Positions 26,018 through 42,288 of a DNA stretch of 64,000 nucleotides are shown here, piece after piece. Each line of letters opens with the position of its first letter. Within the stretch, counting starts at the first letter, position 1. The notes below the pieces were generated by a model. The model saw only the letters and a list, made by a program, of their open reading frames with translations. It had not been told where the DNA came from and ran no database searches. The stretch comes from a virus (taxonomy: Duplodnaviria > Heunggongvirae > Uroviricota > Caudoviricetes). A program made the translations under genes and the position numbers. The stretch lies in the IMG/VR virus record IMGVR_UViG_3300011442_000002, positions 11,825 through 75,824 of that record; one strand, written 5' to 3'.

Positions 26018-26089
26018 GGACGCATAGCTCAGTGGAAGAGCATCGCTCTTACAAAGCGAGGGTCATAGGTTCAAATCCTATTGTGTCTA
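26018..26089 (+). tRNA. tRNA-Val (TAC)
   Basis: Hand-folded cloverleaf. D-arm GCTCAGTGGAAGAGC, anticodon stem TCGCT/AGCGA with loop CTTACAA, T-arm ATAGGTTCAAATCCTAT. Confidence 0.55.
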
Positions 26090-26324
26090 CAACAAATAGT
26101 GTTAGATCATTGACACTCAAAAAGTAATGATAAAAAATTTTTGGTGAAACCCCGGTAATTGATGTCGTTTAGGACTTAGTTATCGGGTTGCTGACCAAAA
26201 ATTGCGACGATAGCAACTAAAGGTTCCATTTTGAAGCCGCTGCCGCCCAGTAGACAATGATCTACTCCGTAGGTGATGGAAGAAGAGTTGCACTTATTAT
26301 CCTCCGAGCATTGGAGGTGACAAA

Positions 26325-26699
26325 ATGGGTACAAAAGCAAATTACGAAACAATGAACTATGCAGCCCGACGCGAGAGAATGGATAAATCGCGCCGTGCTG
26401 GACAACTTAACCGAATATATCGACGTGATGGTGGTATCTGTCAACTCTGCCACAGACCATGTAGTAGAGCCGATGCATCCCGCGATCATATCAAAGACTT
26501 TGCACTGTGTACTCCAGAAGAAGCAAAAGATGATGACAACATGGTACTTGCACACAAAGAGTGTAACAACAACAAGCATCACAAACCTGGACACAGTGTA
26601 GATGTTCGCGATAGAAATTCACACCTAAGCTTCACAATTCAAGAAGCATTTCCAGATTTTAAGTGGAATATAACAGATTTGCCTTCTGAGTCGGATTGA
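26325..26699 (+). CDS. HNH endonuclease (free-standing, homing-type)
   Basis: CQLCH...DHI...H..CNNNKH motif set. A sigma70-like promoter lies upstream and a terminator hairpin downstream. Confidence 0.65.
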   Translation: MGTKANYETMNYAARRERMDKSRRAGQLNRIYRRDGGICQLCHRPCSRADASRDHIKDFALCTPEEAKDDDNMVLAHKECNNNKHHKPGHSVDVRDRNSHLSFTIQEAFPDFKWNITDLPSESD

Positions 26700-26758
26700 A
26701 TCGATTATCTAATTACGAGTTCGAATCTCGTTATTGGTACCCGAAAGGTTTGCCAATA
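26688..26758 (+). ncRNA. modular structured RNA element, family copy 1 (GAGTCGGA...GATTATCT + T-arm-like hairpin)
   Basis: Shares the core with elements at 26910, 27146, 27226, 28896, 31057 and 31652. Overlaps the last codons of the HNH gene. Confidence 0.35.
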
Positions 26759-26850
26759 GCACGACGCATGGTAGCGTCAGCACGCGGCAACTAGTGTTTG
26801 TAGCGTGTTAGAAACAACGGTCGATTCTAAAACATATTCAGAAGCTAGTT

Positions 26851-26883
26851 CTACAGTAGTGTTCCGGCACTACTGTAGTTTTC
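26851..26883 (+). terminator. Rho-independent terminator
   Basis: 11-bp perfect stem CTACAGTAGTG/CACTACTGTAG followed by TTTTC. Confidence 0.6.
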
Positions 26884-26909
26884 ATTGTCAGACTTAGGGC
26901 TGACTTTAA

Positions 26910-26975
26910 ACACGGGTCGAACGTTAACGGTTATCTGGCAGAGAATCTTCCGTTAACAATAACATATCCGTGTCC
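26910..26975 (+). ncRNA. modular structured RNA element, family copy 2
   Basis: GGGTCGAACGTTAACGGTTATCTGG...CCGTTAAC, enclosed by ACACGG/CCGTGT. Confidence 0.4.
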
Positions 26976-27145
26976 TTAAGCTTGTTAGTGGATGCGACGC
27001 AATTCCGTTATTGGGTGTCGTAAGCGTACAGTGGAGGACAAGGTACGCATAATACAGTGTGCTAGTTGAGTCGACAGTAACGTCTACATTGTGAACAGTC
27101 GATAGTTATGCTTGTAGAGACTTAGCACACTTCTTAACTTAGCTT

Positions 27146-27190
27146 GGGTCGAAAGTAGTCGGTTATCTAACATATTGCTTCCCGACTACA
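27146..27190 (+). ncRNA. modular structured RNA element, family copy 3
   Basis: GGGTCGAAAGTAGTCGGTTATCTAAC...CCGACTAC. The stem covaries relative to the other copies. Confidence 0.4.
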
Positions 27191-27225
27191 CGCACATACT
27201 ATATCTAAGCGCTGAATTAAAGTTC

Positions 27226-27285
27226 GGGTCGAACGTTGATTGGTTAGCCTATTAAGCCGCTGGTTCCGGGTTCGAATCCTAGCAG
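27226..27285 (+). ncRNA. modular structured RNA element, family copy 4 (with GGGTTCGAATCC T-loop-like segment)
   Basis: GGGTCGAACGTTGATTGGTTAGCC...GGGTTCGAATCCTAG. Confidence 0.3.
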
Positions 27286-27361
27286 AGATTTAGTTATCTC
27301 TGTAGCTCAATTGGTAGAGCAGCGAAAACCCCGATCAACATACACACATCCGAACTATCCC

Positions 27362-27434
27362 ACCCACATAGCTCACCGGATAGAGCATCACACTACGAAT
27401 GTGAGGGTTGTAGGTTCAATTCCTACTGTGGGTA
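27362..27434 (+). tRNA. tRNA-Arg (ACG)
   Basis: Acceptor ACCCACA/TGTGGGT, anticodon loop CTACGAA, T-arm GTAGGTTCAATTCCTAC. Confidence 0.6.
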
Positions 27435-27590
27435 CGCAAGGAAATCGTGTCCGGCCGACATAGAAGGAATCGTGCATCGCCGATATTAATATGAAGGATG
27501 CACAAATTTTTCCAAATAGATGGCTTCGCGTCACTAGATGGAAAGTCAGTGAAGCCACCGGCACTGAATAAACTCTACCGGTGGCGCCTT

Positions 27591-27665
27591 GTGTCTTAAG
27601 TGTAATGGTTTGCACGAGAGCTTCCAAACCTCTTTGAGTGGGTTCGATTCCTACAAGACGCGCCA
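27591..27665 (+). tRNA. tRNA-Trp (CCA), CCA 3' end encoded
   Basis: Acceptor GTGTCTT/AAGACGC, anticodon loop TTCCAAA, T-arm GTGGGTTCGATTCCTAC. Followed by GCCA. Confidence 0.45.
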
Positions 27666-27723
27666 CAATTAAAAACACGGGACAAAGACATTACTCCAGA
27701 AAACAACTAAGTTCAGGAGTATG

Positions 27724-28885
27724 GATGAGTCAAGTAAAAAGAAGTACAAAGCTGGCGTTATCAGTAGTTCTCGCGTCAGTTCTAATCGCAATCGGATTTG
27801 CAGCTAGTGCTAGTGCTGCTCCATCTGGTTTGCAAGCAAGATTACAACTAGCAGAGGATAACCTGGCAAATTGCCAGTTATTGGCTTCTAATGCGACAGG
27901 TAACCAACTAACTAGAGCACAAAATTGTGTAGCAGATAACCAAGCGATCATTAACCTGATCAATGCTCAGTTAAATCCTACACCTGTACCAAGCACTAGT
28001 AGTACGTCACCTGCGCCTAGTGTGACGGTAACAACACCGGCACCTAGTACAACAACTCCAAGTCCTAGTCCTACTGTTACAACGCCGACACCTACACCAA
28101 GTCCCACAGGGCCGTCTACTACTCTGAAGAATTGCTTTAATTATCTTCACCAGTGTGGATATCCCGACCATGGCGATACCGGTGTACCAGTTGGCACAGT
28201 CTTAACTACGTATACTGGACCGGAAACGATTACCGTAGCTGGCACAGTTATCAATGGCAAGTCCATGAAATGTGTCAACATCAAGGCAGCAAATGTAGTG
28301 ATCCGCAATTCTAAGATCACTGGACCATGCTTCTACGGTGTTGAAATGATTAGTGGTTCTTTGCTTATTGAGTACAGCGAAGTAACCTGTGTTGATGGCA
28401 CTGGTACAGGCATTGCAGATGATGGCTTTACTGCAAGTCATGTATATGTTCATGATTGTGAGAATGGCTTTAGCTTAGGTAGCAACAATATAGTTCGCGA
28501 TTCTTATATTTCGGCTCGCGAAGCTACCTCAGCAGGTCATGGCGATGGTATTCAATCGGTTTCAGCAACAAACGTAACTATTCAGCACAACACGTTTGAC
28601 CTGTTTAACCCGGTAACATCGTCCATTATCATGGACAACCTGACGATGAAGAATCTTTTAGTTCGAGATAACTTCGTTTCGTCTGGTGCACTTACAATTT
28701 ATTGTCCAGAAGCTACTTCAAGCAACGTACAATACATTAACAACCGGTTCTATGGCCCAGTCGGTAACACAAGTATTGATCCACGACGACCGGCTTATGG
28801 TTATACTGATGGTTGCAACGTTGCGGCATTTATTTGGGTAGGAAACTACCGTGACTATGATTTAGGTGTAGTTAACAAGAGTTAA
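27724..28885 (+). CDS. secreted protein: signal peptide + Thr/Pro/Ser-rich linker + right-handed beta-helix (pectate-lyase-like) domain
   Basis: Start reset to MSQVKRSTKLALSVVLASVLIAIGFAASASA (signal peptide), then PTPVPSTSSTSPAPSVTVTTPAPSTTTPSPSPTVTTPTPTPSPTGPST, then NxxI/V-rich beta-helix repeats. Confidence 0.5.
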
Positions 28886-28895
28886 ACGTTGATAT

Positions 28896-28960
28896 GGGTC
28901 GGATGTTGTCGGTTATCTAACTATTATTAGAAGGTATGGGTTCGACTCCCATTGTGAAGC
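28896..28960 (+). ncRNA. modular structured RNA element, family copy 5 (with T-arm hairpin ATGGGTTCGACTCCCAT)
   Basis: GGGTCGGATGTTGTCGGTTATCTAAC immediately after the stop of the secreted-protein gene. Confidence 0.4.
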
Positions 28961-29139
28961 TGTGGAGCAATAAAAACCCGATAACGAAAATTTATCCATA
29001 TCTCATAAGCTGCACCGGGCGCCTTGGCTGGTATACCAATCCCCGTGTGCGTAATTGCTCACACTGGTTACTATGGTGGAGATCACAGGCTTGAAACCAT
29101 ATAGCTCCTAGGAAGCTAGTAATCCAGTGTGGGCATCAT

Positions 29140-29212
29140 GCCGCTTTATCCTAATGGACTAAGGAACCACTCTTCCAAAGTGGGTACGCGGGTTCGATTC
29201 CCGCAAGCGGTT
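29140..29212 (+). tRNA. tRNA-Gly (TCC)
   Basis: Acceptor GCCGCTT/AAGCGGT, anticodon loop CTTCCAA, T-arm GCGGGTTCGATTCCCGC, discriminator T. Confidence 0.6.
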
Positions 29213-29302
29213 CGCCTTTTTACTGCGAAGTTATGGCTAGTTGGTAAGTGTGTTCCAAATCTCCAAAAGGGTTTTGGGTCAGATCAAACACTTACCAACG
29301 AT

Positions 29303-29385
29303 AGAAGATTGCCAGAGTGGCTTATTGGGTTGGTTTGCTAAACCAATGAGGGTAACCTCCACAGGTTCGAATCCTGTATCTTCTG
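29303..29385 (+). tRNA. tRNA-Ser (GCT)
   Basis: Type II. Anticodon loop TTGCTAA, variable hairpin GAGGGTAACCTC, T-arm ACAGGTTCGAATCCTGT. Confidence 0.6.
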
Positions 29386-29684
29386 CGTCCAGTTTACCAG
29401 TTCTGTAACTTAGGGTTTGTAAAGACTGGTCGTCCAATCTGTTTTGGCACAGTAATTGTGGTCAGACGCCTAAATGACGTACAATATCGGTGTCGCAGAC
29501 AAGTTTCTTTGCTGGTTTCTTTAACTGTGGTTAGTCAATAAAGAAACCAGCACCCAAACGAGGTTGTAAGTATACGATAACCGTGAGGTATTCGTACGGC
29601 GTGCGCACACTAAAATTCCCTTATGCAGCTAGGTGCAGCCCAGGGGTAAAGATAAGCCGTTCCTAGCAGACTTACAACTTCTTT

Positions 29685-29765
29685 GCCGACATGGCGGAAT
29701 GGCAGACGCGCTAGATTTAGGTTCTAGTATCTTCGGATGTGCGAGTTCAAGTCTCGCTGTCGGTA
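29685..29765 (+). tRNA. tRNA-Leu (TAG)
   Basis: Type II. Anticodon loop TTTAGGT, variable hairpin ATCTTCGGAT, T-arm GCGAGTTCAAGTCTCGC, discriminator A. Confidence 0.6.
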
Positions 29766-29963
29766 CATGAAAAGATGGTTTAATAAGCAGTTTCCATACA
29801 TGCGACGTTGTGAAAAGAAGTGGTGCTTTAAGGGCCAAACCTATGGTGGACATTGTTATTTACATGCATCAAGTTGGTATGGTGTATAGACGAGGGTGCC
29901 ACGTATAAGAGAGTTTACCTCTCCTGGATTTCTAGACCAGATATGTGAAGGTGGCACCTTTGG

Positions 29964-30039
29964 CATTCTATAGCTCAACAGGCAGAGCGGCTGGCTGAAT
30001 TATGGCCGGCGGATTCAGGTTCGAGTCCTGATAGGATGG
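29964..30039 (+). tRNA. tRNA-like (possible Phe GAA; imperfect anticodon stem)
   Basis: Acceptor CATTCTA/TAGGATG, D-arm GCTCAACAGGCAGAGC, T-arm TCAGGTTCGAGTCCTGA. The anticodon arm pairs poorly. Confidence 0.3.
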
Positions 30040-30299
30040 CATTACGACATGGTGATTCCCAGTAGTCTGACTCTGAGGGGTGATCAGATTACTGCAAAAT
30101 ATGTCGTCTTATGCGAATATCACCGAGACGCATAAGGGTGTAGAAGAAGCGACCAAATTGGCGAGGGCTTCCATGTTGGCTAGGGATGAGGCTAACCTTA
30201 AATAAAAGAATAATCCATATTGAAGCGAAAGCAGACCATTTACCGTTAATTGTTACTTGTTTCTACTGTGTCTGTTTTCGCCCGCGAAAAAGGATTGGT

Positions 30300-31040
30300 A
30301 TGAACAGGAATCGATTAGTCGCGACCTTGCTGTCGGGCTTAATCACGATAGGAATTTTGGGTCTTCCGACTCATGCATTTGCAGCGCAAAGCCCACAGGC
30401 AGCAGCGCCAGTAAGTAGCATAACGGAAGTAGCCAATCTTTCAACTAGTGTAGAGAATAAGACAGTAGCTAGCGATACGTCGGTAACTGTTACCCCGTAT
30501 CCTTCGCCTTATGGCAGTCTTTCTGGTATTTCACAGGCTTTCTATGGCGACATTAGTCACTGGCCGGGCCTATGCTCATCCAATGGCATCGCGAATTGTG
30601 ACCTTCTTTATGTTGGTCAGTCAATTAGAGTTCCTACTACTGCACCTGTGGGTCCGGCCCCTGCACCGGCGCCCGCTCAGGCACCAGCAAACAATTCTAG
30701 TAGAGCACAGAGAATTGTAAACTATGCTCTAGCGCAGGTTGGCAAACCTTATGTTTGGGCAGCGGCTGGTCCATATGCCTTTGACTGTTCAGGTTTGGTA
30801 ATGCGTGCACTAGAGCAGGTTGGTGTATATGTTCCACACCAGGATCAATCAATTCTGTATTCTGGTCAAGGCTATGCAGTATCGCGTGACAATCTTCAGC
30901 CAGGTGACATCGTTTGGCCGTACAACGGCCATGTCTTTGTTTACATTGGCAATGGTAAGATTGTAGAGGCAGCCAACCCGGCTCAAGGTGTGATTGTTAA
31001 CAACCTTTACTCGTTTATGGCTGCTCGCCGGTACGTATAA
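30300..31040 (+). CDS. secreted LysM + NlpC/P60 peptidoglycan endopeptidase
   Basis: Signal peptide MNRNRLVATLLSGLITIGILGLPTHAFAAQ. LysM (GISQAFYGDISHW...LLYVGQSIRVP). NlpC/P60 (FDCSGLV...H). Start reset from the listed 30186. Confidence 0.6.
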   Translation: MNRNRLVATLLSGLITIGILGLPTHAFAAQSPQAAAPVSSITEVANLSTSVENKTVASDTSVTVTPYPSPYGSLSGISQAFYGDISHWPGLCSSNGIANCDLLYVGQSIRVPTTAPVGPAPAPAPAQAPANNSSRAQRIVNYALAQVGKPYVWAAAGPYAFDCSGLVMRALEQVGVYVPHQDQSILYSGQGYAVSRDNLQPGDIVWPYNGHVFVYIGNGKIVEAANPAQGVIVNNLYSFMAARRYV

Positions 31041-31056
31041 ATTAATAGGCTTGGAT

Positions 31057-31099
31057 GGGTCGGATCTTATCGGTTACCAATCATATAAACCCGATAAGC
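31057..31099 (+). ncRNA. modular structured RNA element, family copy 6
   Basis: GGGTCGGATCTTATCGGTTACCAATC...CCGATAAG, directly after the stop of the NlpC/P60 gene. Confidence 0.4.
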
Positions 31100-31120
31100 A
31101 AATAAAATACCTATCCAACT

Positions 31121-31205
31121 GGAGAGTTAGCCTAGTGGCCTAAGGCGCCAGTCCTGAAAACTGGAGAAGGTAACACTTCCGTGGGTTCGAATCCTACACT
31201 CTCTG
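31121..31205 (+). tRNA. tRNA-Ser (TGA)
   Basis: Type II. D-arm GCCTAGTGGCCTAAGGC, anticodon loop CCTGAAA, T-arm GTGGGTTCGAATCCTAC, discriminator G. Confidence 0.6.
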
Positions 31206-31236
31206 CGCAAGGTCCCTACTATAGGGAGGAAAATGG

Positions 31237-31632
31237 ATGGCAGATGTTAATATAAGCCTGGATTTCTCAGGATTGCCACCCACCGTAAGTGCTGTCCATG
31301 TGCACATTGAATATGCACACGGGTTAGAAGCGAAAATCGACGCGATTGGAGTACAAGTGTCAGAGCTTGACGACGCCGTAGCTGCTGTAAATGCGCAGAC
31401 TTCGGAGATTCTCGTTAACACTAACGAGCTAGTTAAGGATGTTACTCGACTCATTGAGCAGGGTGACACTTCCGCCGCGCTAGCTGAGCTACAGACGATT
31501 TCTACTAACCTAGAGACAGCTAACGCTGCACTCGTAACGACAGACCAGGCAGTAGAAGTAGCTTCTCCGGAAACTCCTGCTACGCCAGAACCAACCCCAG
31601 TAGTAGCGCCATCGGTAATCGACGAGCTGTAA
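31237..31632 (+). CDS. hypothetical coiled-coil protein
   Basis: 131 aa. Confidence 0.45.
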   Translation: MADVNISLDFSGLPPTVSAVHVHIEYAHGLEAKIDAIGVQVSELDDAVAAVNAQTSEILVNTNELVKDVTRLIEQGDTSAALAELQTISTNLETANAALVTTDQAVEVASPETPATPEPTPVVAPSVIDEL

Positions 31633-31651
31633 AATCAAAGCTTAGCTGTTG

Positions 31652-31740
31652 GGTCGAAGTTAATTGTTTATCTCAGATAGTTTAAAGGGTAAAACAATCC
31701 TCATTGAGGGTTAATGTCGGTTCGAATCCGACTCTGAAAT
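31652..31740 (+). ncRNA. modular structured RNA element, family copy 7 + T-arm hairpin (GTCGGTTCGAATCCGAC); candidate Y-RNA-like ncRNA next to the Ro60 gene
   Basis: GGGTCGAAGTTAATTGTTTATCTCAG with stem ATTGTTT/AAACAAT, then CCTCATTGAGGG, then a T-arm. Confidence 0.4.
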
Positions 31741-31776
31741 TCGTAACGATTACAACACATATCCAATAGTCCTTTG

Positions 31777-31871
31777 GGGACACATGGGTCCACTAGTATA
31801 TTTCTGATCAACTAGTGAGCGTGGGCATGATCAGACCTACGATGATAGGGTTCGAGTCCCTATGTCTCCAC
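31777..31871 (+). ncRNA. tRNA-like ncRNA (acceptor-like stem + T-arm, extra internal hairpin); candidate YrlA-type tRNA-like domain
   Basis: GGGGACA...TGTCTCC acceptor-like pairing. T-arm TAGGGTTCGAGTCCCTA. Internal CACTAGT...ACTAGTG hairpin. No canonical anticodon arm. Confidence 0.35.
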
Positions 31872-32107
31872 ATGAAAGTGCAAAATGATGCAAAAACACT
31901 AATACAAGCACTTGATCTTTTACACGAAGATTTACCTTGTGAAGGTAACATCGAAAAAGAATTTTGTAGTAGATGTATTCATCTTAGGCCAACTTTGGTT
32001 GCATACGTTGAGTCATTGCCACAATGGCAGCTTGGTTTGGTAGTACTTATAATAATTCTAAAATCTCTATACACAATCGTAATATATCCCTTTAGGAGGG
32101 GTCGACT

Positions 32108-33706
32108 ATGGCTAACTCAGCATTCTCCCGTGCGTTAGGCACTCCAGCAATTCAGACCGAAAAGGCTCGCCCGGATCAGGTCGAGAACAACGCTGGTGGA
32201 TTTGTTTTTGAGGTGTCTGACCAGGCACGGCTTGAGCGCTTTTTAATTCTCGGCACTGATGGTGGAACGTACTATACGTCTGAGAAGAAGCTCACTAAGG
32301 AAAATATCGCGTTTTTACAGGACCTTATTGAGCGTAACGAAGACCTAGTAATCGACGTTGTGCGTGCAGTATCCATGGGTGGACGTGCTTACCGTAACTC
32401 TGCGGCAATCTTCACTGTTGCTGCTTTGTTTACCTACGGTAAGGAAAAGTCTTCTCAGCTAGTTGAGGATGTTTGCCGCACTGCGACGCACCTGTTTGAG
32501 TTTGCTGAGTACGTAGAACTACTTGGTGGTTGGGGACGTTCTAAGCGTCGCGCCGTTGCCGAGTGGTACACTAACAAGACACCAGAAGCATTAGCTTATC
32601 AGGTAATTAAGTATCGTCAGCGCAATGGTTGGTCTCACCGCGACCTTCTACGTTTGTCCCACCCTGTGGGCCTTAACAAGCGGGTAGGCAATTTCATTAC
32701 TGGTGAGGACAAGCGTCCTGCTGCTAGTACTACTGACGAAGAAGATTTGGGCATTATCCGTGCTTTCAAGTTTGCACAGGAAGCTCAGTCATTTTCTGAA
32801 TTGAAGAATATGGCGCTAACCGAGCGTAGTCTACCTTGGGAAGCTGTACCTACGGAGTTCCACAAGAATGTCGAACTTTGGAAGACTCTTTTCTACAATG
32901 GTGCGCTCAAAGGTCAAGCCCTTCTGCGTAATATTACTCGCTTGGCTCGTTTGGGCGCTTTTGACGATCTCGTGTTTGCTCGCGATTTCGCTGATGGACT
33001 TCTTAACGAGGAAATGATTAAGCGTACCAAGCTACACCCGATTCAGTACTTGCTTGCACTATCGGTACACCAGATAGGTCAGGTTGATCGTAAGCTTCAC
33101 GTTAGAACTAAGGATTGGCGCGAGTCACACATCATTGTAGATGCACTTAATGAGGGATTCTACAAGGCATTTAGCTATGTAGAGCCAGCAAATAAGCGCA
33201 CTATGATCGGTCTCGATGTTTCAGGATCTATGTCTAGTAGTGCTCTTGGATTAGAACTTAGCTGTGCGCAAATTGGTGCAGCTATGTCTATGTCAATTGC
33301 TCGTACTGAGCCTTACTATGCAATTATGGGCTTCAAGAACAAGTTAACAGACCTTGGTATCACTGCTAGCATGGATCTGAACAGTGTGTTGCAGCGTACT
33401 GAAAACCAAACTTTTGGTAGCACTGATTGTTCGCTACCAATTCTTTACGCACAGATGAACAACATCGCAATTGATACCTTTGTCATTATGACCGACAATG
33501 AAACTTGGTTTGGTAGTGTGCATCCATTCATAGCGCTCCGTGATTATCGACAGAGAACTGGTATTGATGCAAAGCTAGTGGTAGCAGGACTAACGACAAC
33601 TGAATTCACTATTGCAGATCCTCGCGATCGTGGTATGCTAGATGTAGTTGGTGCTGATGCTAACCTTCCAAAGCTTGTTTCCGAATTCAGTGCAGGCAGG
33701 ATTTAA
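32108..33706 (+). CDS. rsr: Ro60 / TROVE-domain protein with C-terminal vWA (MIDAS DxSGS) domain (Rsr-like)
   Basis: LERFLILGTDGGTYY is a TROVE signature. C-terminal GLDVSGSMSS. The size (532 aa) is typical for Ro60 orthologs. Confidence 0.65.
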   Translation: MANSAFSRALGTPAIQTEKARPDQVENNAGGFVFEVSDQARLERFLILGTDGGTYYTSEKKLTKENIAFLQDLIERNEDLVIDVVRAVSMGGRAYRNSAAIFTVAALFTYGKEKSSQLVEDVCRTATHLFEFAEYVELLGGWGRSKRRAVAEWYTNKTPEALAYQVIKYRQRNGWSHRDLLRLSHPVGLNKRVGNFITGEDKRPAASTTDEEDLGIIRAFKFAQEAQSFSELKNMALTERSLPWEAVPTEFHKNVELWKTLFYNGALKGQALLRNITRLARLGAFDDLVFARDFADGLLNEEMIKRTKLHPIQYLLALSVHQIGQVDRKLHVRTKDWRESHIIVDALNEGFYKAFSYVEPANKRTMIGLDVSGSMSSSALGLELSCAQIGAAMSMSIARTEPYYAIMGFKNKLTDLGITASMDLNSVLQRTENQTFGSTDCSLPILYAQMNNIAIDTFVIMTDNETWFGSVHPFIALRDYRQRTGIDAKLVVAGLTTTEFTIADPRDRGMLDVVGADANLPKLVSEFSAGRI

Positions 33707-33912
33707 TGTCAACATTAATTGATGCAGATGAAGAAGTAGTTGTAACTGATGCATATGGAAATAAGGCAAATGTAAGCTACGAAGACGCACTAGATATTGC
33801 TCAATGGTATGAGCTTGACAAGCATGACAAGCTTCATCCAATGACAATAGCAACCATAGTAGCTGCATTGATTACATGTGTATTTTCGCTGTCTGTGGCA
33901 ATTTTGCTATAA
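33706..33912 (+). CDS. small protein with C-terminal TM helix
   Basis: 68 aa. Coupled to the Ro60 stop. Confidence 0.4.
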   Translation: MSTLIDADEEVVVTDAYGNKANVSYEDALDIAQWYELDKHDKLHPMTIATIVAALITCVFSLSVAILL

Positions 33913-34127
33913 CTCCTGCTGTCTGCACTGCAGCAGGATTGCTGGCCAGTTTAGAATACCTCCACTTATTCGAAGACTGCGTTTGACACTATTATTAGAT
34001 TGGGATAGGATCTGATAGTCCCCGCTATCCCTAGTTCCGACCGGCTAGTTGAACTAGGCAATCTAGTATTAGGGCAGGGTGAGCCTGCGGCTAACCATAT
34101 GACCAGCACATAGAGGTTAGCACCTAA

Positions 34128-34200
34128 GCTTCCGTACTCCAATGGCAGAGAGAGCCGACTTAAAATCGGTACAGTATGGGTTCGACTCCCATGGGAAGCA
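34128..34200 (+). tRNA. tRNA with anticodon TAA (Leu-type anticodon) but type I (short variable arm)
   Basis: Anticodon stem GCCGA/TCGGT, loop CTTAAAA, T-arm ATGGGTTCGACTCCCAT. One G-G mismatch in the acceptor. Confidence 0.4.
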
Positions 34201-34201
34201 C

Positions 34202-34414
34202 ATGAACGAACAAGCATTTGAAGAAATGGCAAAACTTTTGGGTCATCAAGTGAAAATAACTCTTTCCTGGGAAGATTCACAATCAATCATTATTGGTAAT
34301 TTCTTTGGATTAGACATCGAAGGTAGTGCTGTCGTAGATACTACCGAAGGTAGACGATACGTTTGGCCTGTGTTATTTGTAGAACATCTTGATTCATGTA
34401 AACATGCATCATGA
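34202..34414 (+). CDS. hypothetical protein
   Basis: Start reset to the ATG just after the tRNA. Confidence 0.35.
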   Translation: MNEQAFEEMAKLLGHQVKITLSWEDSQSIIIGNFFGLDIEGSAVVDTTEGRRYVWPVLFVEHLDSCKHAS

Positions 34415-34418
34415 GAAT

Positions 34419-34490
34419 GGCCCCATTGAGTATTGGTTAGCTTTGCGCTCTTTCACAGCGTAGGACAGGGTTCGATTCCCTGTGGGGCTA
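34419..34490 (+). tRNA. tRNA-Glu (TTC)
   Basis: Acceptor GGCCCCA/TGGGGCT, anticodon loop CTTTCAC, T-arm CAGGGTTCGATTCCCTG. Confidence 0.55.
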
Positions 34491-34595
34491 CGGTAGTACG
34501 TACGGCTCATACCCGTACGTTGCTGCAAGCGGATCACAGTCCGCGCCTGGCAACAGATGAAACTGCTGTGTACAGTGTAATTGAGCCAGGTTTAA

Positions 34596-34669
34596 CGGGA
34601 TATGGCGCAGTTTGGCAGCGCGCTTGCTTTGGGAGCAAGAAGTCGTAGGTTCGAATCCTACTATCCCGA
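34596..34669 (+). tRNA. tRNA-Pro (TGG)
   Basis: C1-G72 pair, anticodon loop TTTGGGA, T-arm GTAGGTTCGAATCCTAC, discriminator A. Confidence 0.6.
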
Positions 34670-34852
34670 CATGTTAATAGAAGATGTAGGAATTAGATTA
34701 GTAACCTCCAATAAACAGCTAACGTACACAGAGCTTTTAGCTTTTCTAAAAGCTATATCTGATCGTAAGATGGAAGCTTGTATGATCTATATAAGGGAAA
34801 ATGGGTTAGAAACTGTAATAGGAAATAATCTAGGGTCGAAGACGGACTAGAT

Positions 34853-35038
34853 ATGTTTATAGTACATCTAGCAGTTGACGAAGCACCAGAACTTACAGTT
34901 TGTGGAATTCCATGGCAAGATTGGCAAGCACCAAGATACGCAAAACATATCACCCTACTTGGTAGGGTGCCAGCAACTGGTGATTTGTTGCACTTTTGTG
35001 ACAAGTGCAGAGCTAGTCTGTTCATCACTGGTGAATAA
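34853..35038 (+). CDS. hypothetical Cys-containing protein
   Basis: 61 aa. Confidence 0.35.
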   Translation: MFIVHLAVDEAPELTVCGIPWQDWQAPRYAKHITLLGRVPATGDLLHFCDKCRASLFITGE

Positions 35039-35238
35039 TTAAATATGGGTTAGTGCCAGAGGTCTGGCAGGCAGTCTGTAAAACTGCTGCACATAGTGCA
35101 ATGTAGGATCGTTACCTACCTGGCCCACAAATCGTGTCTGACATATACATGATATCCACACGAGAGTTACTACTCCGGACGCGCTGCATAGTAACCAAGC
35201 TAGTGGTAAAAAGAGTAACGTGCTTAATATGTCACTTT

Positions 35239-35312
35239 GGGGAATTGGCGCAATCTGGCAGCGCAGGACCTTTGCAAGGTCAAGGCTATCGGTTCAAATC
35301 CGATATTCTCCA
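35239..35312 (+). tRNA. tRNA-Ala (TGC)
   Basis: G3-U70 pair present. Anticodon loop TTTGCAA, T-arm ATCGGTTCAAATCCGAT. Confidence 0.6.
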
Positions 35313-35412
35313 CGATGTGCCTGACATATGCACGTGCCTATAATGACGTAGCAATTAGCGGATATGCTACCGCTCAATAAATAGGGATGGGACCGCTCCT
35401 AATATGTCACTT

Positions 35413-35485
35413 GTGACCATACCATAACGGCTAATGGACTACCCTGTCACGGTAGGATATGAGGGTTCGAATCCCTTTGGTCACG
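35413..35485 (+). tRNA. tRNA-Asp (GTC)
   Basis: Perfect acceptor GTGACCA/TGGTCAC, anticodon loop CTGTCAC, discriminator G. Confidence 0.65.
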
Positions 35486-35619
35486 CGCAATTATTGGTGA
35501 GGGAATGTCGACGGACATGATGGTAGTGGAGTTTTTAGATGGGTCAGGTACGGTAGGCTCTCCGTAGGATGCATACGAAAGAGATCGTACACGACAGTAA
35601 CCTTGATTGCTAAGTCCCA

Positions 35620-35688
35620 TATGAGCTTATGGTAAAGCTCCAACTTCGCGGCGGGATGTAGGTTCGAATCCTACTATGGGACCGTGGA
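35620..35688 (+). tRNA. tRNA-like (acceptor TCCCATA/TATGGGA + T-arm; anticodon arm not foldable)
   Basis: GTAGGTTCGAATCCTAC T-arm and AGCTTATGGTAAAGCT D-arm, but no canonical anticodon stem. Confidence 0.25.
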
Positions 35689-35881
35689 TGCAGAACTAGT
35701 AGTTATTCATTTGATAGATTTCGATGGCAGATTTGGTGACCATCCAGTTGCTTGCAATGGTGCAGTAGCTGGAGATAAAGCCATAACTATCGAACAAGCT
35801 AAAGATCCTGAAAATCAGATGTTTTTTAATTGTCCGAAATGCTATGAAATATTCACTGGAGAAAAGCCAAATGGCGAATAA
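35684..35881 (+). CDS. hypothetical protein (CPKC)
   Basis: 65 aa. Confidence 0.4.
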   Translation: MDAELVVIHLIDFDGRFGDHPVACNGAVAGDKAITIEQAKDPENQMFFNCPKCYEIFTGEKPNGE

Positions 35882-36074
35882 CAATGATTTTCAGATTGAA
35901 CTGCGAGCGCTACTTGGAAAGCACATGATCGACATATATTGCCGCACTCGTGATGTAACTTTAGTAGATTACATCGTAGCATGTCTTACTGCTTATCGAA
36001 GGGCGTTCTTAGAAACAAAGGATTTAGAAGCAGCTAGTTCTAGGGCCGCAGATAACATTTCCGATCCGACATAG
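35871..36074 (+). CDS. hypothetical protein
   Basis: Start reset to MANNNDFQ. Confidence 0.35.
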   Translation: MANNNDFQIELRALLGKHMIDIYCRTRDVTLVDYIVACLTAYRRAFLETKDLEAASSRAADNISDPT

Positions 36075-36137
36075 CTCAGTTGGCAGAGCGCTGCACTGTT
36101 AATGCGGATGTCACAGGTTCGAGCCCTGTTGTCGGAG
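36065..36137 (+). tRNA. tRNA-Asn (GTT)
   Basis: Acceptor TCCGACA/TGTCGGA perfect. Anticodon loop CTGTTAA, T-arm ACAGGTTCGAGCCCTGT, discriminator G. Confidence 0.65.
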
Positions 36138-36167
36138 CGCAAGTTTAACAAACTAGGAGAATTTATA

Positions 36168-36440
36168 ATGGCTGGTGAAGACCTTCAGGCACAGTACAAT
36201 CATCTTCTATGGCAGCTTGGACAGCTACATGAGGAAGCTAAGATTGCTGGCCAGGTTTATCAGGAAAAGCTAAAGGCAATTCGTAAGCGCAGTGAGAAGC
36301 TAAACGAGCATTTGCATAGTCTAGGTTCGGCTATTCGCAAACGGCATACCCCACAGGTGGCCGGTGTAGCGGGTCGATTTCCGCAGGAACAATTGGTTGA
36401 TCCGCGTTCTGACTGGAGTTCCTCGAACGTAGGCGGATAA
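36168..36440 (+). CDS. hypothetical coiled-coil protein
   Basis: Start after the AGGAG SD (MAGEDLQAQ). Confidence 0.4.
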   Translation: MAGEDLQAQYNHLLWQLGQLHEEAKIAGQVYQEKLKAIRKRSEKLNEHLHSLGSAIRKRHTPQVAGVAGRFPQEQLVDPRSDWSSSNVGG

Positions 36441-36474
36441 TATATGAACAGTTAACGAGTCCTAAGGAGGACAT

Positions 36475-36837
36475 ATGTTAAAGGTTCATATATGGTCGCA
36501 CAAAGATGGTGACCACCTAGCAGTTGTTGAAGTACCATGGTGGCATGATATTCTTGATTGGTTGTTTACCAAACTATTTTGTCCTTGCTGTGGGTTTTCT
36601 GGTTGGTTATCTGGAAAAGCAGAATGGTTAGAAATCTTCTTTTGGAAACTATCTAATCATTTAAGTAACTTTACCTGGAAACTTGAAAAAGAGTTGTACA
36701 AAACGCCAATCGAGTCTGGCTGTGTTGCTACTCGGACAATATTTGATCCAAAATCATCTTGTTGGCGTGACAATTGTGATGTTTGTTGGGCTGAGCGAGA
36801 GGATGCATATTCTCATGAAGCGAGGCGCGAAGAGTAG
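36475..36837 (+). CDS. Cys-rich hypothetical protein
   Basis: 120 aa. Contains CPCCGFSGW...CWRDNCDVCW. Confidence 0.45.
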   Translation: MLKVHIWSHKDGDHLAVVEVPWWHDILDWLFTKLFCPCCGFSGWLSGKAEWLEIFFWKLSNHLSNFTWKLEKELYKTPIESGCVATRTIFDPKSSCWRDNCDVCWAEREDAYSHEARREE

Positions 36838-36994
36838 AACTAAAAAAGCTCTACGCGATCAAGCCAACAGCAAGGCCAGAGTTAAACTCCAAAAACAGGT
36901 ACGCGATTGGTTGAAATCGCCAAAGACAGCATTAGATGATAACCAATCAGTACCTGCCCAACATAGACATTCTGTACTGTGGGATGTTGGATGA
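36806..36994 (+). CDS. small basic protein
   Basis: Internal start of listed ORF 36683, after the GAGAGG SD. Confidence 0.3.
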   Translation, partial: HILMKRGAKSRTKKALRDQANSKARVKLQKQVRDWLKSPKTALDDNQSVPAQHRHSVLWDVG

Positions 36995-37254
36995 AAGACT
37001 TTGATTTTGAAGCATTCATGGCTAGGGCGTTGCGCAATGAGCTAGAAGCGCAACGCCCAAGACAATGCTCAGAAACAATTAGTGGTTATCATGATACCAC
37101 AGATCGTCTAGGTAAATGTTGTTTGTGTCGTAAGAAAATCACTAAGGGTGATCGACAGCCAGATCCAGACCTTAAACATAAATCTAATCTAGTACTTGCT
37201 TACGAGTATTTTTATGATCCAAACTATGGTGATAGTGTATATGACCTATACTAA
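36979..37254 (+). CDS. hypothetical Cys-containing protein
   Basis: 91 aa. Confidence 0.4.
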   Translation: MGCWMKDFDFEAFMARALRNELEAQRPRQCSETISGYHDTTDRLGKCCLCRKKITKGDRQPDPDLKHKSNLVLAYEYFYDPNYGDSVYDLY

Positions 37255-37262
37255 TTGAATAT

Positions 37263-37333
37263 GCCCTCGAAGCATTAAGGTGATGCTCCGGACTTTTAAT
37301 CCAGAGAACGCGGATCAATACCGCGCGAGGGTA
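37263..37333 (+). tRNA. tRNA-Lys (TTT), atypical T-loop (ATCAATA)
   Basis: Acceptor GCCCTCG/CGAGGGT, anticodon loop CTTTTAA. The T-stem CGCGG/CCGCG pairs, but the loop lacks TTC. Confidence 0.4.
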
Positions 37334-37345
37334 CGCAACCATAAT

Positions 37346-37417
37346 TGAGCTATGGTCTAATTGGCAGGACGACGGATTTTGATTCCGTTGGTTTAGGTTC
37401 GAATCCTAGTGGCTCAG
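37346..37417 (+). tRNA. tRNA-Gln (TTG)
   Basis: U1-A72 pair, anticodon stem ACGGA/TCCGT, loop TTTTGAT, discriminator G. Confidence 0.6.
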
Positions 37418-37588
37418 CGTGAAAACATTTGAGCTTGTCGAAAAGCTACATGAGCTTATGCGACAAACCGGTAAGGGTGGTCGAGAAATTCAAATCATAT
37501 CCGATGATGGATATGTTCTCGACATTGTCCAAGCTAAATTTGATCCAGAAAATGAGAAGTTTTTCCTAATCACTGAGGAAGCAGAATA

Positions 37589-38521
37589 ATGGCCTGGGAA
37601 TTTTGGTTTACGATCGTTTTTGCTGTATTAGCTTTTTTTGTTTATAGGATTAAGATTTCTTCACGAGCCAATCTTAAGCAAGCTAATGAAAATGGTACAC
37701 GAGAAGAGAAAAACAAAGCAACAGTTATTAGTGCTGGATCTTCAACACTGTTTGCAATTGCAGCAGGATTAGCCGGACTGTTCTTTTTCTTCTCAATTGC
37801 TTACGCAGTGCCAGTACGCAACGTAGGTATTGTTACCTCGTTTGGCAATCCCACAGGTAGAATCACTGGCAGCGGACTTAAGTTTGTGCTTCCATGGCAA
37901 AAGGTAGCAGACTTTGACGCCTCAGTACAGTTCTCTGATCATACTGGTGCCGACCATTGCACGACAGTTCGTATTGGTTCACTTGCTACGGCTTGTGTAG
38001 AAAATCGAATTGGTTGGCAGGTATTAGAATCAGCAGCACCAAGACTGTACCGTGACTACAAGGGATCTTTTGATAACCTTAAGAATAACTTGGTAGAAAC
38101 CAAGTTCCAAAATGCCCTTAATGCGGTGTTCGCCACATATAACCCGTTATCACAGGTAAATATTGCTACTGGACAAACCTCGTTCGATGGTGCTAAGCTT
38201 AGTCAAGAGCTTGAAGCCGAGCTAAATCGCACCATTGGTAGCGATATCAAAATCCTTACAGTATCTGTGCCACTCGTGCATCACGATGAAAAAACTGAAG
38301 CTAATATCAAGGCTTTCCAGGACGTGATTGCTAAGGCTAGAATTCTAGATCAGCAGCTAGCCAATGCCCAAAAGGAAAAGGCAATTGCAGACCTTCAGGC
38401 TGTATACCTAACTACTGAATACATTCAGAACAAGTGTATTGAAGAGTCAGTTAAGATGGGTGTACCTCCTGGACTATGTCTAGTTGGTGGTCAAGCTATC
38501 GTAGACACGAGGAAACCATGA
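37589..38521 (+). CDS. SPFH/band-7 (prohibitin/stomatin-like) membrane protein
   Basis: N-terminal TM segments, then VPVRNVGIVTSFGNPTGRITGSGLKFVLPWQKV and a coiled-coil tail. Confidence 0.5.
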   Translation: MAWEFWFTIVFAVLAFFVYRIKISSRANLKQANENGTREEKNKATVISAGSSTLFAIAAGLAGLFFFFSIAYAVPVRNVGIVTSFGNPTGRITGSGLKFVLPWQKVADFDASVQFSDHTGADHCTTVRIGSLATACVENRIGWQVLESAAPRLYRDYKGSFDNLKNNLVETKFQNALNAVFATYNPLSQVNIATGQTSFDGAKLSQELEAELNRTIGSDIKILTVSVPLVHHDEKTEANIKAFQDVIAKARILDQQLANAQKEKAIADLQAVYLTTEYIQNKCIEESVKMGVPPGLCLVGGQAIVDTRKP

Positions 38522-38685
38522 ACAAAGCTGAACTAGAACGTGCACTAAAGAGAGTTACTGGTATGGCTCTTAAGAAGGTTGTAGTTAATTTGGGCGATGA
38601 TTTGCTAAGTGACATTGATCATGTGTATTTCGATGAAGCACTCGGTTGTGTAGTAATTGTACCAGCTTCTACCATTGAAGCCTAA
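38518..38685 (+). CDS. hypothetical protein
   Basis: Internal ATG (MNKAELERALK), coupled to the SPFH gene stop. Confidence 0.35.
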   Translation: MNKAELERALKRVTGMALKKVVVNLGDDLLSDIDHVYFDEALGCVVIVPASTIEA

Positions 38686-38885
38686 TCATGGGTATAGCTG
38701 ATGATAATTACAAGCGACAGGTTGTTCGTGAAGCTGTAGCTCAATCAGCTTGGGACTTAGTTAATCAACTACCACTTGATCTTACAACCTTGATTGAGCA
38801 AGACATAGTTACTACGCAGGCACTAGCTGATTATTGGCTAGAAGAGTTAGAAAAACTAGTTTAGCACAAAGGGCTTCGGCCCCAT

Positions 38886-38959
38886 GCGCCTAAGCGGACT
38901 GGTGGTCCGGAAATGTCTTATAAGCATTTTGAAGTAGGGTTCGATCCCCTATGGGCGTA
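38886..38959 (+). tRNA. tRNA, anticodon TAT (Ile-type AUA reader?); low confidence
   Basis: Acceptor GCGCCTA/TGGGCGT with 2 G-U pairs, D-arm CGGACTGGTGGTCCG, anticodon loop CTTATAA, T-arm TAGGGTTCGATCCCCTA. Confidence 0.35.
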
Positions 38960-38961
38960 CA

Positions 38962-39335
38962 TGGACAATCTACTATTGATAATTGGTCAGGTAGCTTACG
39001 TAGTAAGACTTTTGTGGATAACTTCAGCAATAATGCTTGAGCTAAATAGTAGCAAAAGACTCTTTAATAAAACCAATTTACCATATAAATACTTTCTGGT
39101 AATGTTTGCGGAACTAAAACCATTTTATCTTCCAGCAATCATGTTTATGATGGCAAAAGAAATTGGTACTCACACTACCAATTGGTTTTCTCCTATAGAT
39201 TATGCATGTGCCATAATTCTGTATCATCTTTTGAAGAACGTTGACGAAGATGATAGATGGAAGAAGCGCCGAAAGAAACTAACAGAGAAAGTAAAAGCGT
39301 TTGGCGGTAGGCTAGTGGTTGTACCAACCAGTTAA
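38962..39335 (+). CDS. membrane protein
   Basis: Start after the tRNA (MDNLLLIIGQ). Several TM helices and a basic tail. Confidence 0.4.
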
Positions 39336-39348
39336 GATAGGTGACCAA

Positions 39349-39693
39349 ATGAAAATGGTGTCTATACCAGAAGAAGAACTTGAGAGACTTAAGTCTAAGA
39401 ACAGGCAACAAGCTCGGGAAATTCGTATAATTCAGGAAGCCCTTAGAGCTAAAAATTTAGACCTTGATGCCATGCATTTTGTTTGGTGTGATGGTGGCTG
39501 TTCGCGTGGCGTTCATCGTTTCTCAGAAACGATTCTTACTGAGGAAATGATCCTTAGAGCCGAACGAAACACTAAACGTCTTCGCAGGTGGTACAACACG
39601 GTAAAATGGCGAATGACTACGTTTCCAACAATGAGTCAATGGCACGACAGTTATGCTAAACGTGCTGCTGCTAGAACAGATTTGCCGGTGTAG
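39349..39693 (+). CDS. hypothetical protein
   Basis: MKMVSIPEEE start after an SD-like region. Confidence 0.4.
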   Translation: MKMVSIPEEELERLKSKNRQQAREIRIIQEALRAKNLDLDAMHFVWCDGGCSRGVHRFSETILTEEMILRAERNTKRLRRWYNTVKWRMTTFPTMSQWHDSYAKRAAARTDLPV

Positions 39694-39755
39694 CTCAGTG
39701 GTAGAGCAACCGCCTTGTAAGCGGTAGGTCAACAGTTCAATCCTGTTCTCCGGCT
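39684..39755 (+). tRNA. tRNA-Thr (TGT)
   Basis: D-arm GCTCAGTGGTAGAGC, anticodon stem ACCGC/GCGGT, loop CTTGTAA, T-arm AACAGTTCAATCCTGTT. Confidence 0.55.
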
Positions 39756-39756
39756 C

Positions 39757-40095
39757 ATGTCAATACCAATGAAACCAAATGATCCAGCCTATTGGCTATT
39801 AGATGCACCAAAACACTATTCAATTCCTAAGGTATATCTAGAGAGTTGTTACATTTGTCGCGACCCTGAGTTTATGCTTATGGGTATGCCGCTATGTCGC
39901 ATCTGTTGTGTTTGCAAGAAACTTAAAGAAAATCTAAGCACAGACGTTCCTATCAATCCTAAAGCCCCACAGGCACTAGTTGTTGTGCCTGGCTATGGAC
40001 ATATTCCGGCCGATGGTTCAGCTTGTGATTTCTGTAAACATGAGTGCGATCCTGGTGATCCCGAATGTGATTATTATGATGGAGAAGCAAGATGA
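39757..40095 (+). CDS. Cys-rich zinc-finger protein
   Basis: Multiple CxxC motifs. Confidence 0.45.
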   Translation: MSIPMKPNDPAYWLLDAPKHYSIPKVYLESCYICRDPEFMLMGMPLCRICCVCKKLKENLSTDVPINPKAPQALVVVPGYGHIPADGSACDFCKHECDPGDPECDYYDGEAR

Positions 40096-40759: not shown

Positions 40760-40901
40760 TTCCTTCTGATACGATTCTTACCATAGTACTGATATTATGG
40801 TTGATTGCTGCTGTTGTACTTTTTGTAATAGCTTTAGTAAAAACTATAGACTACCTCACTGGTCGTGACGATGACGACGATGAAGGTTACTAAATAAATT
40901 A

Positions 40902-42263: not shown

Positions 42264-42288
42264 ATAAATTCTAAGATAAGGAGATAAC

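Follow-up and report, generated by a model that had tools for sequence, protein, structure and literature searches.

Seven probable Y RNA genes with swappable inner modules upstream of rsr in a Caudoviricetes phage

Seven repeated elements, c1 to c7, that lie upstream of a gene for the Ro60 ortholog Rsr in a Caudoviricetes phage are functional structured RNAs with covarying stems, and their sequence and setting make it highly probable that they are Y RNA genes of the bacterial and phage class, of both YrlA and YrlB types, whose products would be partners of the phage-encoded Ro60/Rsr. Ro60, an autoantigen in humans, is a conserved protein of RNA quality control, and Y RNAs are its obligate partners. 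The DNA analysed, here called the window, is a 64,000-nucleotide stretch of a viral genome (IMG/VR record IMGVR_UViG_3300011442_000002, positions 11,825 to 75,824), and all seven copies lie on its + strand between 26683 and 31770. The putative Y RNAs and the rsr gene are listed below with the evidence for each, where R1 denotes a covariance model of the element core (62 positions, trained on phage copies).

26683 to 26844, + strand: c1, putative long Y RNA (descriptor scan; fold z-score -4.68)
26910 to 26973, + strand: c2, putative short Y RNA, YrlB-like (R1 57.4 bits, E 1e-11; fold z-score -3.2)
27142 to 27210, + strand: c3, putative short Y RNA (R1 48.2 bits, E 2e-9; fold z-score -2.4)
27221 to 27356, + strand: c4, putative Y RNA of YrlA type (Rfam YrlA model RF02553, 39 bits, E 1e-5, model positions 23-87; fold z-score -3.0)
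28891 to 29002, + strand: c5, putative Y RNA with a reduced tRNA-like module (descriptor scan, fold and ortholog)
31051 to 31118, + strand: c6, putative short Y RNA (R1 47.3 bits, E 3.5e-9; fold z-score -3.2)
31645 to 31770, + strand: c7, putative Y RNA stem enclosing a tRNA-like cloverleaf (ARAGORN 'Asn(att)'; Rfam tRNA 44 bits; fold z-score -2.9)
32108 to 33706, + strand: rsr, encoding a Ro60 ortholog of 532 amino acids, the presumed protein partner of c1 to c7 (Pfam TROVE 2e-35, vWA_Ro60 3e-61)

An earlier note on this DNA had proposed a family of seven structured RNAs, and folds and covariation confirmed all seven members. They share one architecture. At the 5′ end an outer stem of 5-10 bp with GGGU at its top is followed by a C bulge, a G whose partner is U (C in c4) and an unpaired RA; an inner stem of 8-10 bp, mostly with a terminal GG, leads into a loop start UUAUCU (variants UUACC and UUAGCC) and a variable module; and on the 3′ side the second strand of the inner stem gives way to 8-14 nt rich in A and C, with terminal AYAU (AUAC in c6), and then to the CC-N strand that completes the outer stem. 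A conserved bulged helix, in which 5′-GGGU(C)G-3′ is paired with 3′-CCUA-U-5′, makes up the top of the outer stem. Minimum-energy folds of all seven copies reproduce the two-stem architecture (z-scores -2.1 to -4.7), and the expected 3′ partner strand was sought and located in every one of them. The enclosed module is swappable, being a plain loop in c2, c3 and c6, a permuted tRNA-like domain in c4, an expanded (c1) or reduced (c5) form of such a domain, and a cloverleaf in canonical order in c7; the T-arm-like hairpin ascribed to four copies is present in c1, c4, c5 and c7.

The shared 5′ block GGGTCG(A/G)A was recovered at six + strand sites (26914-31658, inside 4.8 kb), and c1 carries the variant GAGTCGGA at 26688. 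The window holds seven occurrences of GGGTCGRA against 2.0 expected, a count reached by none of 100 shuffles; the seventh occurrence, at 34833, is within a coding region and looks like chance. The second block described as common to all copies holds in its exact form, GGTTATCT, for c2, c3 and c5 only, the other four having one- or two-base variants of it (GATTATCT, GGTTAGCC, GGTTACCA and GTTTATCT), and the gap between the two blocks is constant at 7 nt (8 nt in c4). A first, lax descriptor of the architecture found as many sites in shuffled sequences (mean 13) as in the window and was tightened for that reason. The strict descriptor, which requires the motif, an inner stem with at least 8 of 9 positions paired, an outer stem with 6 of 6 paired and UUAY, returned six window sites, each of them on the + strand, versus a mean of 0.57 in 60 dinucleotide shuffles; c7 escapes it solely through a one-base loop offset.

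The stems change in sequence and keep their pairing. Identity of the seven paralogs over the variable stem columns is about 40%, and the outer-stem pairs 3-68 to 8-63 are nevertheless formed in 7 of 7 copies with two to four pair types each. These pairs were read from the rows of a 39-sequence alignment, as the 3′ strands of c3 and c6 came out misaligned when MAFFT was given only the seven copies. Relatives were collected by scanning viral contigs for GGGTCGRAN7GGTTATCT, which gave 49 loci, in the majority of which the inner and outer stems match; by a rough estimate tens of random matches are possible for such a 15.5-base pattern, and we regard most of the 49 as real because of the matching stems and the linkage to rsr. 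In the alignment of 39 elements with the variable module trimmed off (A1), 88.8% of cells are paired compared with 62% in shuffles, and the covariation score is 0.745, whereas sliding the partners over 1-3 columns gives no more than 0.16. The N of G-N-C-G-R-A is linked to the 3′ strand by pair 10-61, for which 32 elements have U-A and seven C-G, with none unpaired, and pairs 9-62 and 12-60 are always G-U or G-C, save for one non-standard cell at 9-62. None of these three pairs had played a part in element selection.

The same pattern was obtained from loci retrieved via the Rsr protein alone, where the 69 best R1 matches have 95.9% of cells paired and a covariation score of 0.77 versus at most 0.16 after sliding; this alignment was fitted to the model, so that the slid control is the relevant comparison. 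The pair between N and the 3′ strand (10-138 in this alignment) is C-G in 51 matches and U-A in 18, with none unpaired, and is thereby always U-A or C-G across 108 sequences. The argument of the earlier note that covarying stems imply a functional RNA is borne out by these scores. Three of the four stem pairs on which it had been built were correct (GTTAACGG/CCGTTAAC, GTAGTCGG/CCGACTAC and CTTATCGG/CCGATAAG); the fourth, ATTGTTT/AAACAAT as the inner stem of c7, was mistaken, since it sits in the D-arm and the real partner strand is AACGATTAC at 31745-31753.

The core is tied to rsr well beyond this phage. The window Rsr is full-length and aligns end to end with Rsr of Deinococcus radiodurans (2NVO, E 2e-100) and with Xenopus Ro60 (1YVP, E 9e-97), and c7, c6 and c5 lie 0.34, 0.99 and 3.1 kb upstream of its gene on the same strand. 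Among the 49 viral contigs, which had been selected by the DNA motif alone, at least 20 also encode rsr within the retrieved stretch. R1 is unable to span long inserts and detects c2, c3 and c6, missing c1, c4, c5 and c7, which therefore rest on the descriptor scan, folds and orthologs. It gave 68 matches in the 49 motif-selected loci; in those with rsr, 43 of 43 matches are on the rsr strand and 42 of 43 are 43-1610 nt upstream of the gene. In an unbiased set of 95 loci retrieved via the Rsr protein only (15 metagenomic, 80 bacterial or archaeal), R1 gave 91 matches (E<1e-3) in 57 loci, again all on the rsr strand. The bacterial rsr loci were obtained by a search with an Rsr alignment; a search of bacterial genomes with a single Rsr protein found nothing. 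In bacteria the core was found both upstream and downstream of rsr, also in arrays of two to five, and it is a general signature of rsr loci in many phyla.

These results also bear on the possibility that the repeats are sites in the DNA (targets of homing endonucleases, places of recombination or miniature mobile elements, for instance) whose apparent RNA structure is incidental. Short exact blocks are common to the copies, an HNH endonuclease open reading frame (ORF) adjoins c1 and another adjoins a c2-like copy in a related contig (L069, described below), all of which such sites could explain. They could not explain the strand bias, as the copies and the 134 model matches in rsr loci have, without exception, one orientation with respect to rsr, nor the conserved G-U pairs at 9-62 and 12-60; both features make sense at the RNA level only and refute this explanation. 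The low identity of the paralogs in stem columns that stay paired also disagrees with it, and terminal inverted repeats or target duplications were not noticed in the flanks, for which no dedicated search was made. We accordingly give repeated DNA sites scarcely any probability.

Identification of the elements as Y RNAs rests on comparison with published hallmarks. Bacterial Y RNAs carry, close to the 5′ end, GNCGAAN0-1G, which is akin to the GGUCCGA that Ro60 contacts in metazoans, and a conserved YUAY that opens the next loop (Chen et al. 2014, PMC4201824). The motifs of c2 (GUCGAACG), c3 (GUCGAAAG), c4 (GUCGAACG) and c7 (GUCGAAG) fit the first consensus exactly, and in the minimum-energy folds of all seven copies the ends are paired, and the resulting stem displays the motif at a bulge or internal loop. 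The loop opening is UUAU in c1, c2, c3, c5 and c7, UUAC in c6 and, as the exception, UUAG in c4, and the TTA columns are invariant in A1. The original screen for bacterial Y RNAs covered 4 kb around rsr and reported 355 putative YrlAs in 276 genomes, 254 of bacteria and 22 of phages (Chen et al. 2014, PMC4201824); the window elements are likewise near rsr and on its strand, though c1 to c4 are beyond that cut-off. Phage Y RNAs have thus been reported since 2014 (PMC4201824), and according to 2025 work they are bound by phage Ro60: in Thermus phage phiLo, Ro60 binds a pair of Y-RNA-like phage RNAs, Yrl1 and Yrl2, with a CGAA motif, and together with the two RNAs and host PNPase forms a RYPER-like complex (Nucleic Acids Research, NAR, 2025; PMC12135203). 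The published Rsr-binding motif, the covarying Ro-type helix and the presence of rsr 340 nt downstream of c7 argue strongly that the elements are Ro60 ligands, as had been suggested. The alternative suggestion of a new phage small RNA (sRNA) family is superseded, as c1 to c7 belong to the known bacterial and phage Y RNA class; they add a large and varied set to that family and constitute no new class of RNA.

Several observations weigh against the identification of all seven elements as Y RNA genes. The motif of c1, c5 and c6 is GUCGGAU, with G for A at the fifth motif position, and this GNCGGA variant is found in about half of the 39 relatives. None of the window copies reaches the gathering score of any Rfam family; c4 obtained 39 bits from the YrlA model against a cut-off of 69, and c2 and c3 have no match in Rfam at E<10, Y_RNA included. 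The distance of c1 to c4 from rsr, about 4.7-5.4 kb, is greater than the 4 kb allowed by Chen et al., with protein genes and tRNAs in between. Promoter-like sites are not enriched (15 found versus 15.9 expected), which leaves independent transcription units without support. Finally, Streptomyces phage Annadreamy, which carries Y-RNA-like elements, has no rsr anywhere in its 125.7 kb according to tblastn and annotation. Taken against the motif, the covarying helix and the rsr linkage, these observations leave the Y RNA identification highly probable.

The seven copies fall into several types according to their modules. The domain order of YrlA, in which a T-arm is followed by a closed acceptor hairpin and a D-arm (Chen et al. 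2014, PMC4201824), is found in c4 alone; it is partial in c1 and c5, c7 has a tRNA-like domain of the other orientation, and c2, c3 and c6 are without such a domain. The last three are YrlB-like. Their stems are ACACGG/CCGUGU (outer) and GUUAACGG/CCGUUAAC (inner) with core GUCGAAC in c2, GCUUGG/CUAAGC and GUAGUCGG/CCGACUAC with core GUCGAAA in c3, and UUGGAUGGGU/AUACCUAUCCAA and CUUAUCGG/CCGAUAAG with core (C)GGAU and loop start UUACC in c6. They resemble YrlB and other short bacterial Y RNAs, and Yrl1 and Yrl2 of phiLo, in the stem-bulge-stem design, the CGAA motif, the lack of a tRNA-like domain and the position beside rsr. They differ from these RNAs in that the sequences are unrelated beyond the motif and that the window copies have a strongly conserved GGUUAUCU/GGUUACC loop start; for the phiLo RNAs, binding to phage Ro60 and host PNPase was shown experimentally.

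The canonical YrlA of the set is c4 (outer stem GUUCGG/CCGAAC, core GUCGAAC, inner stem GUUGAUUGG/CCGAUCAAC). Its permuted tRNA-like domain at 27258-27326 comprises a T-arm, a closed acceptor hairpin and a D-arm (UAGCUCA..GGUAGAGC), all three of which fall within the stretch aligned to the YrlA model. c4 shares with YrlA (RF02553) the motif, the paired ends, this permuted order and the location upstream of rsr on the rsr strand, differing from it in a score under the Rfam cut-off and in lying 4.75 kb away from the gene. Variants of YrlA are seen in c1 and c5. In c1 (outer stem UUCUGA/UCAGAA, inner stem UUGAAUCGA/UCGAUUCUA, core GUCGGA followed by UUAUCU), the closing pair is GA..UC, compensating for the usual GG..CC, and the module has one extra hairpin in addition to a T-arm and to acceptor-like and D-like hairpins. 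In c5 (outer stem GAUAUGG/CCAUAUC, inner stem GUUGUCGG/CCGAUAAC), the module is reduced to a V hairpin, a T-arm AUGGG-UUCGACU-CCCAU and a mini D-like hairpin. The extra hairpin and non-canonical D-like arm of c1, the absence of an acceptor hairpin from c5 and the presence of seven paralogs in one place are unlike YrlA.

The most divergent module is that of c7 (outer stem GUUGG/CCAAU, core GUCGAAG, inner stem UUAAUUGUU/AACGAUUAC), in which a complete cloverleaf in canonical order (31670-31742) has an acceptor stem of 7-8 bp stacked on the Y stem. Compared by description, it is like Yrn1 of D. radiodurans, in which an anticodon-like arm with an aberrant loop lies between D-like and T arms (PMC4201824): the tRNA-like parts of c7 and of its ortholog L069-G have the orientation opposite to that of YrlA and an aberrant anticodon loop. 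In Yrn1 D-loop features are no more than partial; the cloverleaf of c7, in contrast, is complete, includes a real D-arm and has a tRNA score of 44 bits. As a tRNA it is irregular in the anticodon loop, UCAUUGA (shortened in the Rfam alignment), with C at 33 instead of U33 and the anticodon AUU. Among 257 tRNAs called by ARAGORN in the retrieved loci, c7 is the only one inside a Y stem; L069-G was found afterwards.

L069 is a metagenomic contig whose Rsr is 70% identical to that of the window and which keeps the window's tRNA order (Arg-acg, Gly-tcc, Ser-gct, Leu-tag, Phe-gaa, Ser-tga). The search of related phages for the motif, proposed in the earlier note, yielded 49 viral loci, and L069, retrieved via its Rsr, holds a second set of seven elements. 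A c2-like copy stands behind an HNH ORF, an ortholog of c4 without acceptor hairpin stands ahead of tRNA-Arg, an ortholog of c5 is present, and a tandem array of four copies ends with the c7 ortholog L069-G (5383-5517), in which a Y stem surrounds a tRNA-like domain of canonical order with an aberrant anticodon loop of 8 nt and an unassignable anticodon. Compensatory double changes separate c7 from L069-G in 8 of 29 pairs and c5 from L069-C (2411-2531) in 9 of 27; those in c7 indicate that its design is under selection.

The presence of T-arm sequences in four copies, the ARAGORN call and 44-bit Rfam tRNA score of c7 and a region with at least 22 tRNA genes invite the view that the repeats are decayed or duplicated tRNA genes, functionless pseudogenes strewn through a tRNA island. 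This view, raised in the earlier note as remnants of tRNA duplication, fails for c2, c3 and c6, which are entirely without a tRNA-like part. Moreover, the shared stems, GGGUCGRA and UUAUCU are no feature of tRNAs and are covarying, the T-arm, closed acceptor and D-arm order of c4 is the YrlA permutation and not that of a tRNA, and the orthologs of c5 and c7 hold their structure via compensatory changes, which is unexpected of pseudogenes. The tRNA-pseudogene explanation is largely refuted and very improbable.

A likeness to metazoan Y RNAs had also been remarked on, and it holds for the architecture. Metazoan Y RNAs (RF00019) and nematode stem-bulge RNAs (sbRNAs, RF01656) share with the window copies a Ro site built as a helix with a bulged C (GGUC(C)GA/UUGACU there, GGGU(C)GA/UAUCC here) and an upper stem with terminal GG and a UUAUC loop start (Rfam consensus GGUCCgAagguaGUGGGUUAu); the Rfam consensus of Y_RNA and sbRNA reads GGUCCgA...GUGGGUUAU. 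Unlike metazoan Y RNAs, the window copies have a longer, A/C-rich 3′ strand, an A of CGA that is mostly unpaired, and tRNA-like modules. In scores the likeness did not extend to the window copies: against the sbRNA cut-off of 38, c4 obtained 20.4 bits and c7 17.4 bits, both as weak matches over the full length, and no match to Y_RNA is listed for any of them. It does extend to one relative, a short Y RNA upstream of rsr in IMGVR_UViG_3300037484_000333 (L028, 4076-4149, - strand; sequence blocks ACGGGCCGAAG..GGGUUAUCU..ACUUGCCCGU), which reached 38.1 bits with sbRNA and 19 bits with the metazoan Y_RNA model. Apart from this one sbRNA match, Rfam searches at gathering thresholds of the window and 10 related loci returned tRNA and tmRNA only. 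Of the model searches suggested for the elements, that with YrlA was productive for c4, below the gathering threshold.

Further relatives place the window elements among those of known phages. In mycobacteriophage Bxz1 (L054, AY129337), three tandem unannotated elements (short, YrlA, short) lie at about 3560-3904 upstream of the Ro-like gp220 and share with the window elements the layout of outer stem, GCCGA core, inner stem and GGUUACC. The element at the YrlA position scores 32.5 bits against the cut-off of 69, so that the Rfam threshold leaves out the phage group, of Bxz1/ET08 type, from which a YrlA had been described. In length and arm positions c4 is matched by YrlA-type elements of six viral contigs. 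Among rsr-bearing phage records, 115 are of Streptomyces and 212 of Mycobacterium phages, and the nearest Rsr proteins among Streptomyces BE-cluster phages are those of Comrade, Gilson and Faust (53-55% identity). Annadreamy (NC_048719, 65.8-67.0 kb; L052 5808-7026; L009) carries at least three to four unannotated Y-RNA-like elements among tRNAs, and its relative Comrade has rsr at the syntenic place. Retention of the elements without rsr suggests use of host Rsr or else a role independent of Rsr. Some phage Y elements (L049, region 5283-5909; L050, 7658-7817; L043, - strand, 5449) have large modules of 110-120 nt that are not tRNA-like, and those of L049 and L050 appear by inspection to be related to each other.

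The placement of the copies raises the question of whether they act in cis. c5, c6 and c7 start 5-15 nt 3′ of a stop codon, in agreement with the earlier note on three copies, and c1 overlaps the last codons of the HNH endonuclease ORF, whose stop codon (26697-26699) falls within it. This is the main support for regarding the elements as processing, stability or termination signals on tRNA-island or mRNA transcripts, for example as 3′ end protectors of the preceding genes or as leader elements regulating rsr, in place of free, trans-acting Y RNAs. A terminator-like hairpin after c1 (listed below) and the lack of promoter enrichment point the same way, and the position of nearly all relatives 43-1610 nt upstream of rsr on its strand is compatible with a 5′ leader. 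However, tight packing behind stop codons is general in this tRNA island, the elements have no U-tracts of their own, and a leader does not account for the occurrence of the same core on both sides of rsr and in arrays of two to five in bacteria. In Salmonella, Deinococcus, Mycobacterium smegmatis and phage phiLo, furthermore, such elements are discrete Rsr-bound RNAs (PMC4201824, PMC12135203). An exclusively cis-acting function is therefore improbable in our judgement, and a cis role and the release of Y RNAs may coexist.

For the seven elements as Y RNAs, a mechanism can be proposed by homology. The bulged helix with G-N-C-G-R-A on its 5′ strand would be the docking site of Rsr, because its geometry fits both metazoan GGUC(C)GA/UUGACU and bacterial GNCGAAN0-1G; docking of this kind has precedents in the Xenopus Ro-Y RNA structure and in Deinococcus footprints cited by Chen et al. 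(PMC4201824). The RNAs may be co-transcribed with the surrounding tRNA island, excised by tRNA-processing and other RNases and then bound by phage Rsr, whose cavity the modules would gate and which they could tether to partners. The main candidate partner is host PNPase in a RYPER-like degradation machine, with tRNA-recognising enzymes as another candidate. The effect might be that decay or quality control of structured RNA is redirected during infection, plausibly to the benefit of the phage's own tRNAs, which number at least 22.

A bolder extension, which we put forward tentatively and consider rather unlikely as a whole, is that the seven Y RNAs form a toolkit, with the swappable modules as adaptors that aim one Rsr ring at different partners or substrates, as part of a general takeover of host RNA decay. 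Within such a toolkit the c7 cloverleaf could serve RNase P, RNase Z or the CCA-adding enzyme as a substrate, rsr-less phages of the Annadreamy type would keep their RNAs to capture the host Rsr/PNPase machinery, and phage Y RNAs, so far unannotated, would be widespread in Streptomyces BE-cluster and related actinophages.

The elements lie in a tRNA island on the + strand with 22 tRNAs called by ARAGORN (26018-42264). Megablast of 8 kb of the window against GenBank phages gave a 60-nt stretch of tRNA-Leu as its sole match, and ten larger window ORFs scanned against Pfam encode replication and recombination functions, with no RNA-repair gene among these ten. Other features of the island are listed below.

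26851 to 26878, + strand: strong terminator-like hairpin with a 12-bp stem and UUUUCAUUGU behind it, in the gap between c1 and c2 and immediately next to c1 (consensus match only)
27591 to 27662 (45 bits) and 35615 to 35682 (37 bits), + strand: Rfam tRNA matches with no ARAGORN call
31775 to 31870, + strand: tRNA-like element between c7 and rsr (fold z-score -1.4)
27436 to 27590, 28990 to 29139, 29387 to 29684 and 30041 to 30299, + strand: ORF-free stretches with no assigned feature amid tRNAs and putative Y RNAs

The hairpin at 26851-26878 is the sole clear terminator-like site of the Y RNA region. The counterpart of 27591-27662 in L069 is called tRNA-Trp(cca). The element at 31775-31870 has a 7-bp acceptor stem (GGGGACA/UGUCUCC), a good T-arm (UAGGG-UUCGAGU-CCCUA) and an irregular middle of about 60 nt in place of D and anticodon arms, and it is called by neither ARAGORN nor the Rfam tRNA model. 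Two of the four ORF-free stretches were folded (z-scores about -2.2 to -2.3), and additional non-coding RNAs are possible there.

A full-text literature search that combined Y RNA with Streptomyces phage gave no relevant result. The number and variety of the paralogs, a conserved Y RNA with a complete canonical-order cloverleaf, the unannotated elements of Streptomyces BE-cluster phages and their retention in rsr-less Annadreamy go beyond the searchable literature. Bacterial and phage Y RNAs are poorly catalogued, since Rfam thresholds miss every window copy and the mycobacteriophage YrlA-type element that was tested, and the core model offers a practical route to their annotation in hundreds of sequenced actinophages. 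On the probable identification given here, one phage is able to encode seven Y RNAs of at least four architectures, a seven-copy set is kept in a relative, and the seven elements would provide a natural panel of module variants for probing how modules direct Rsr.

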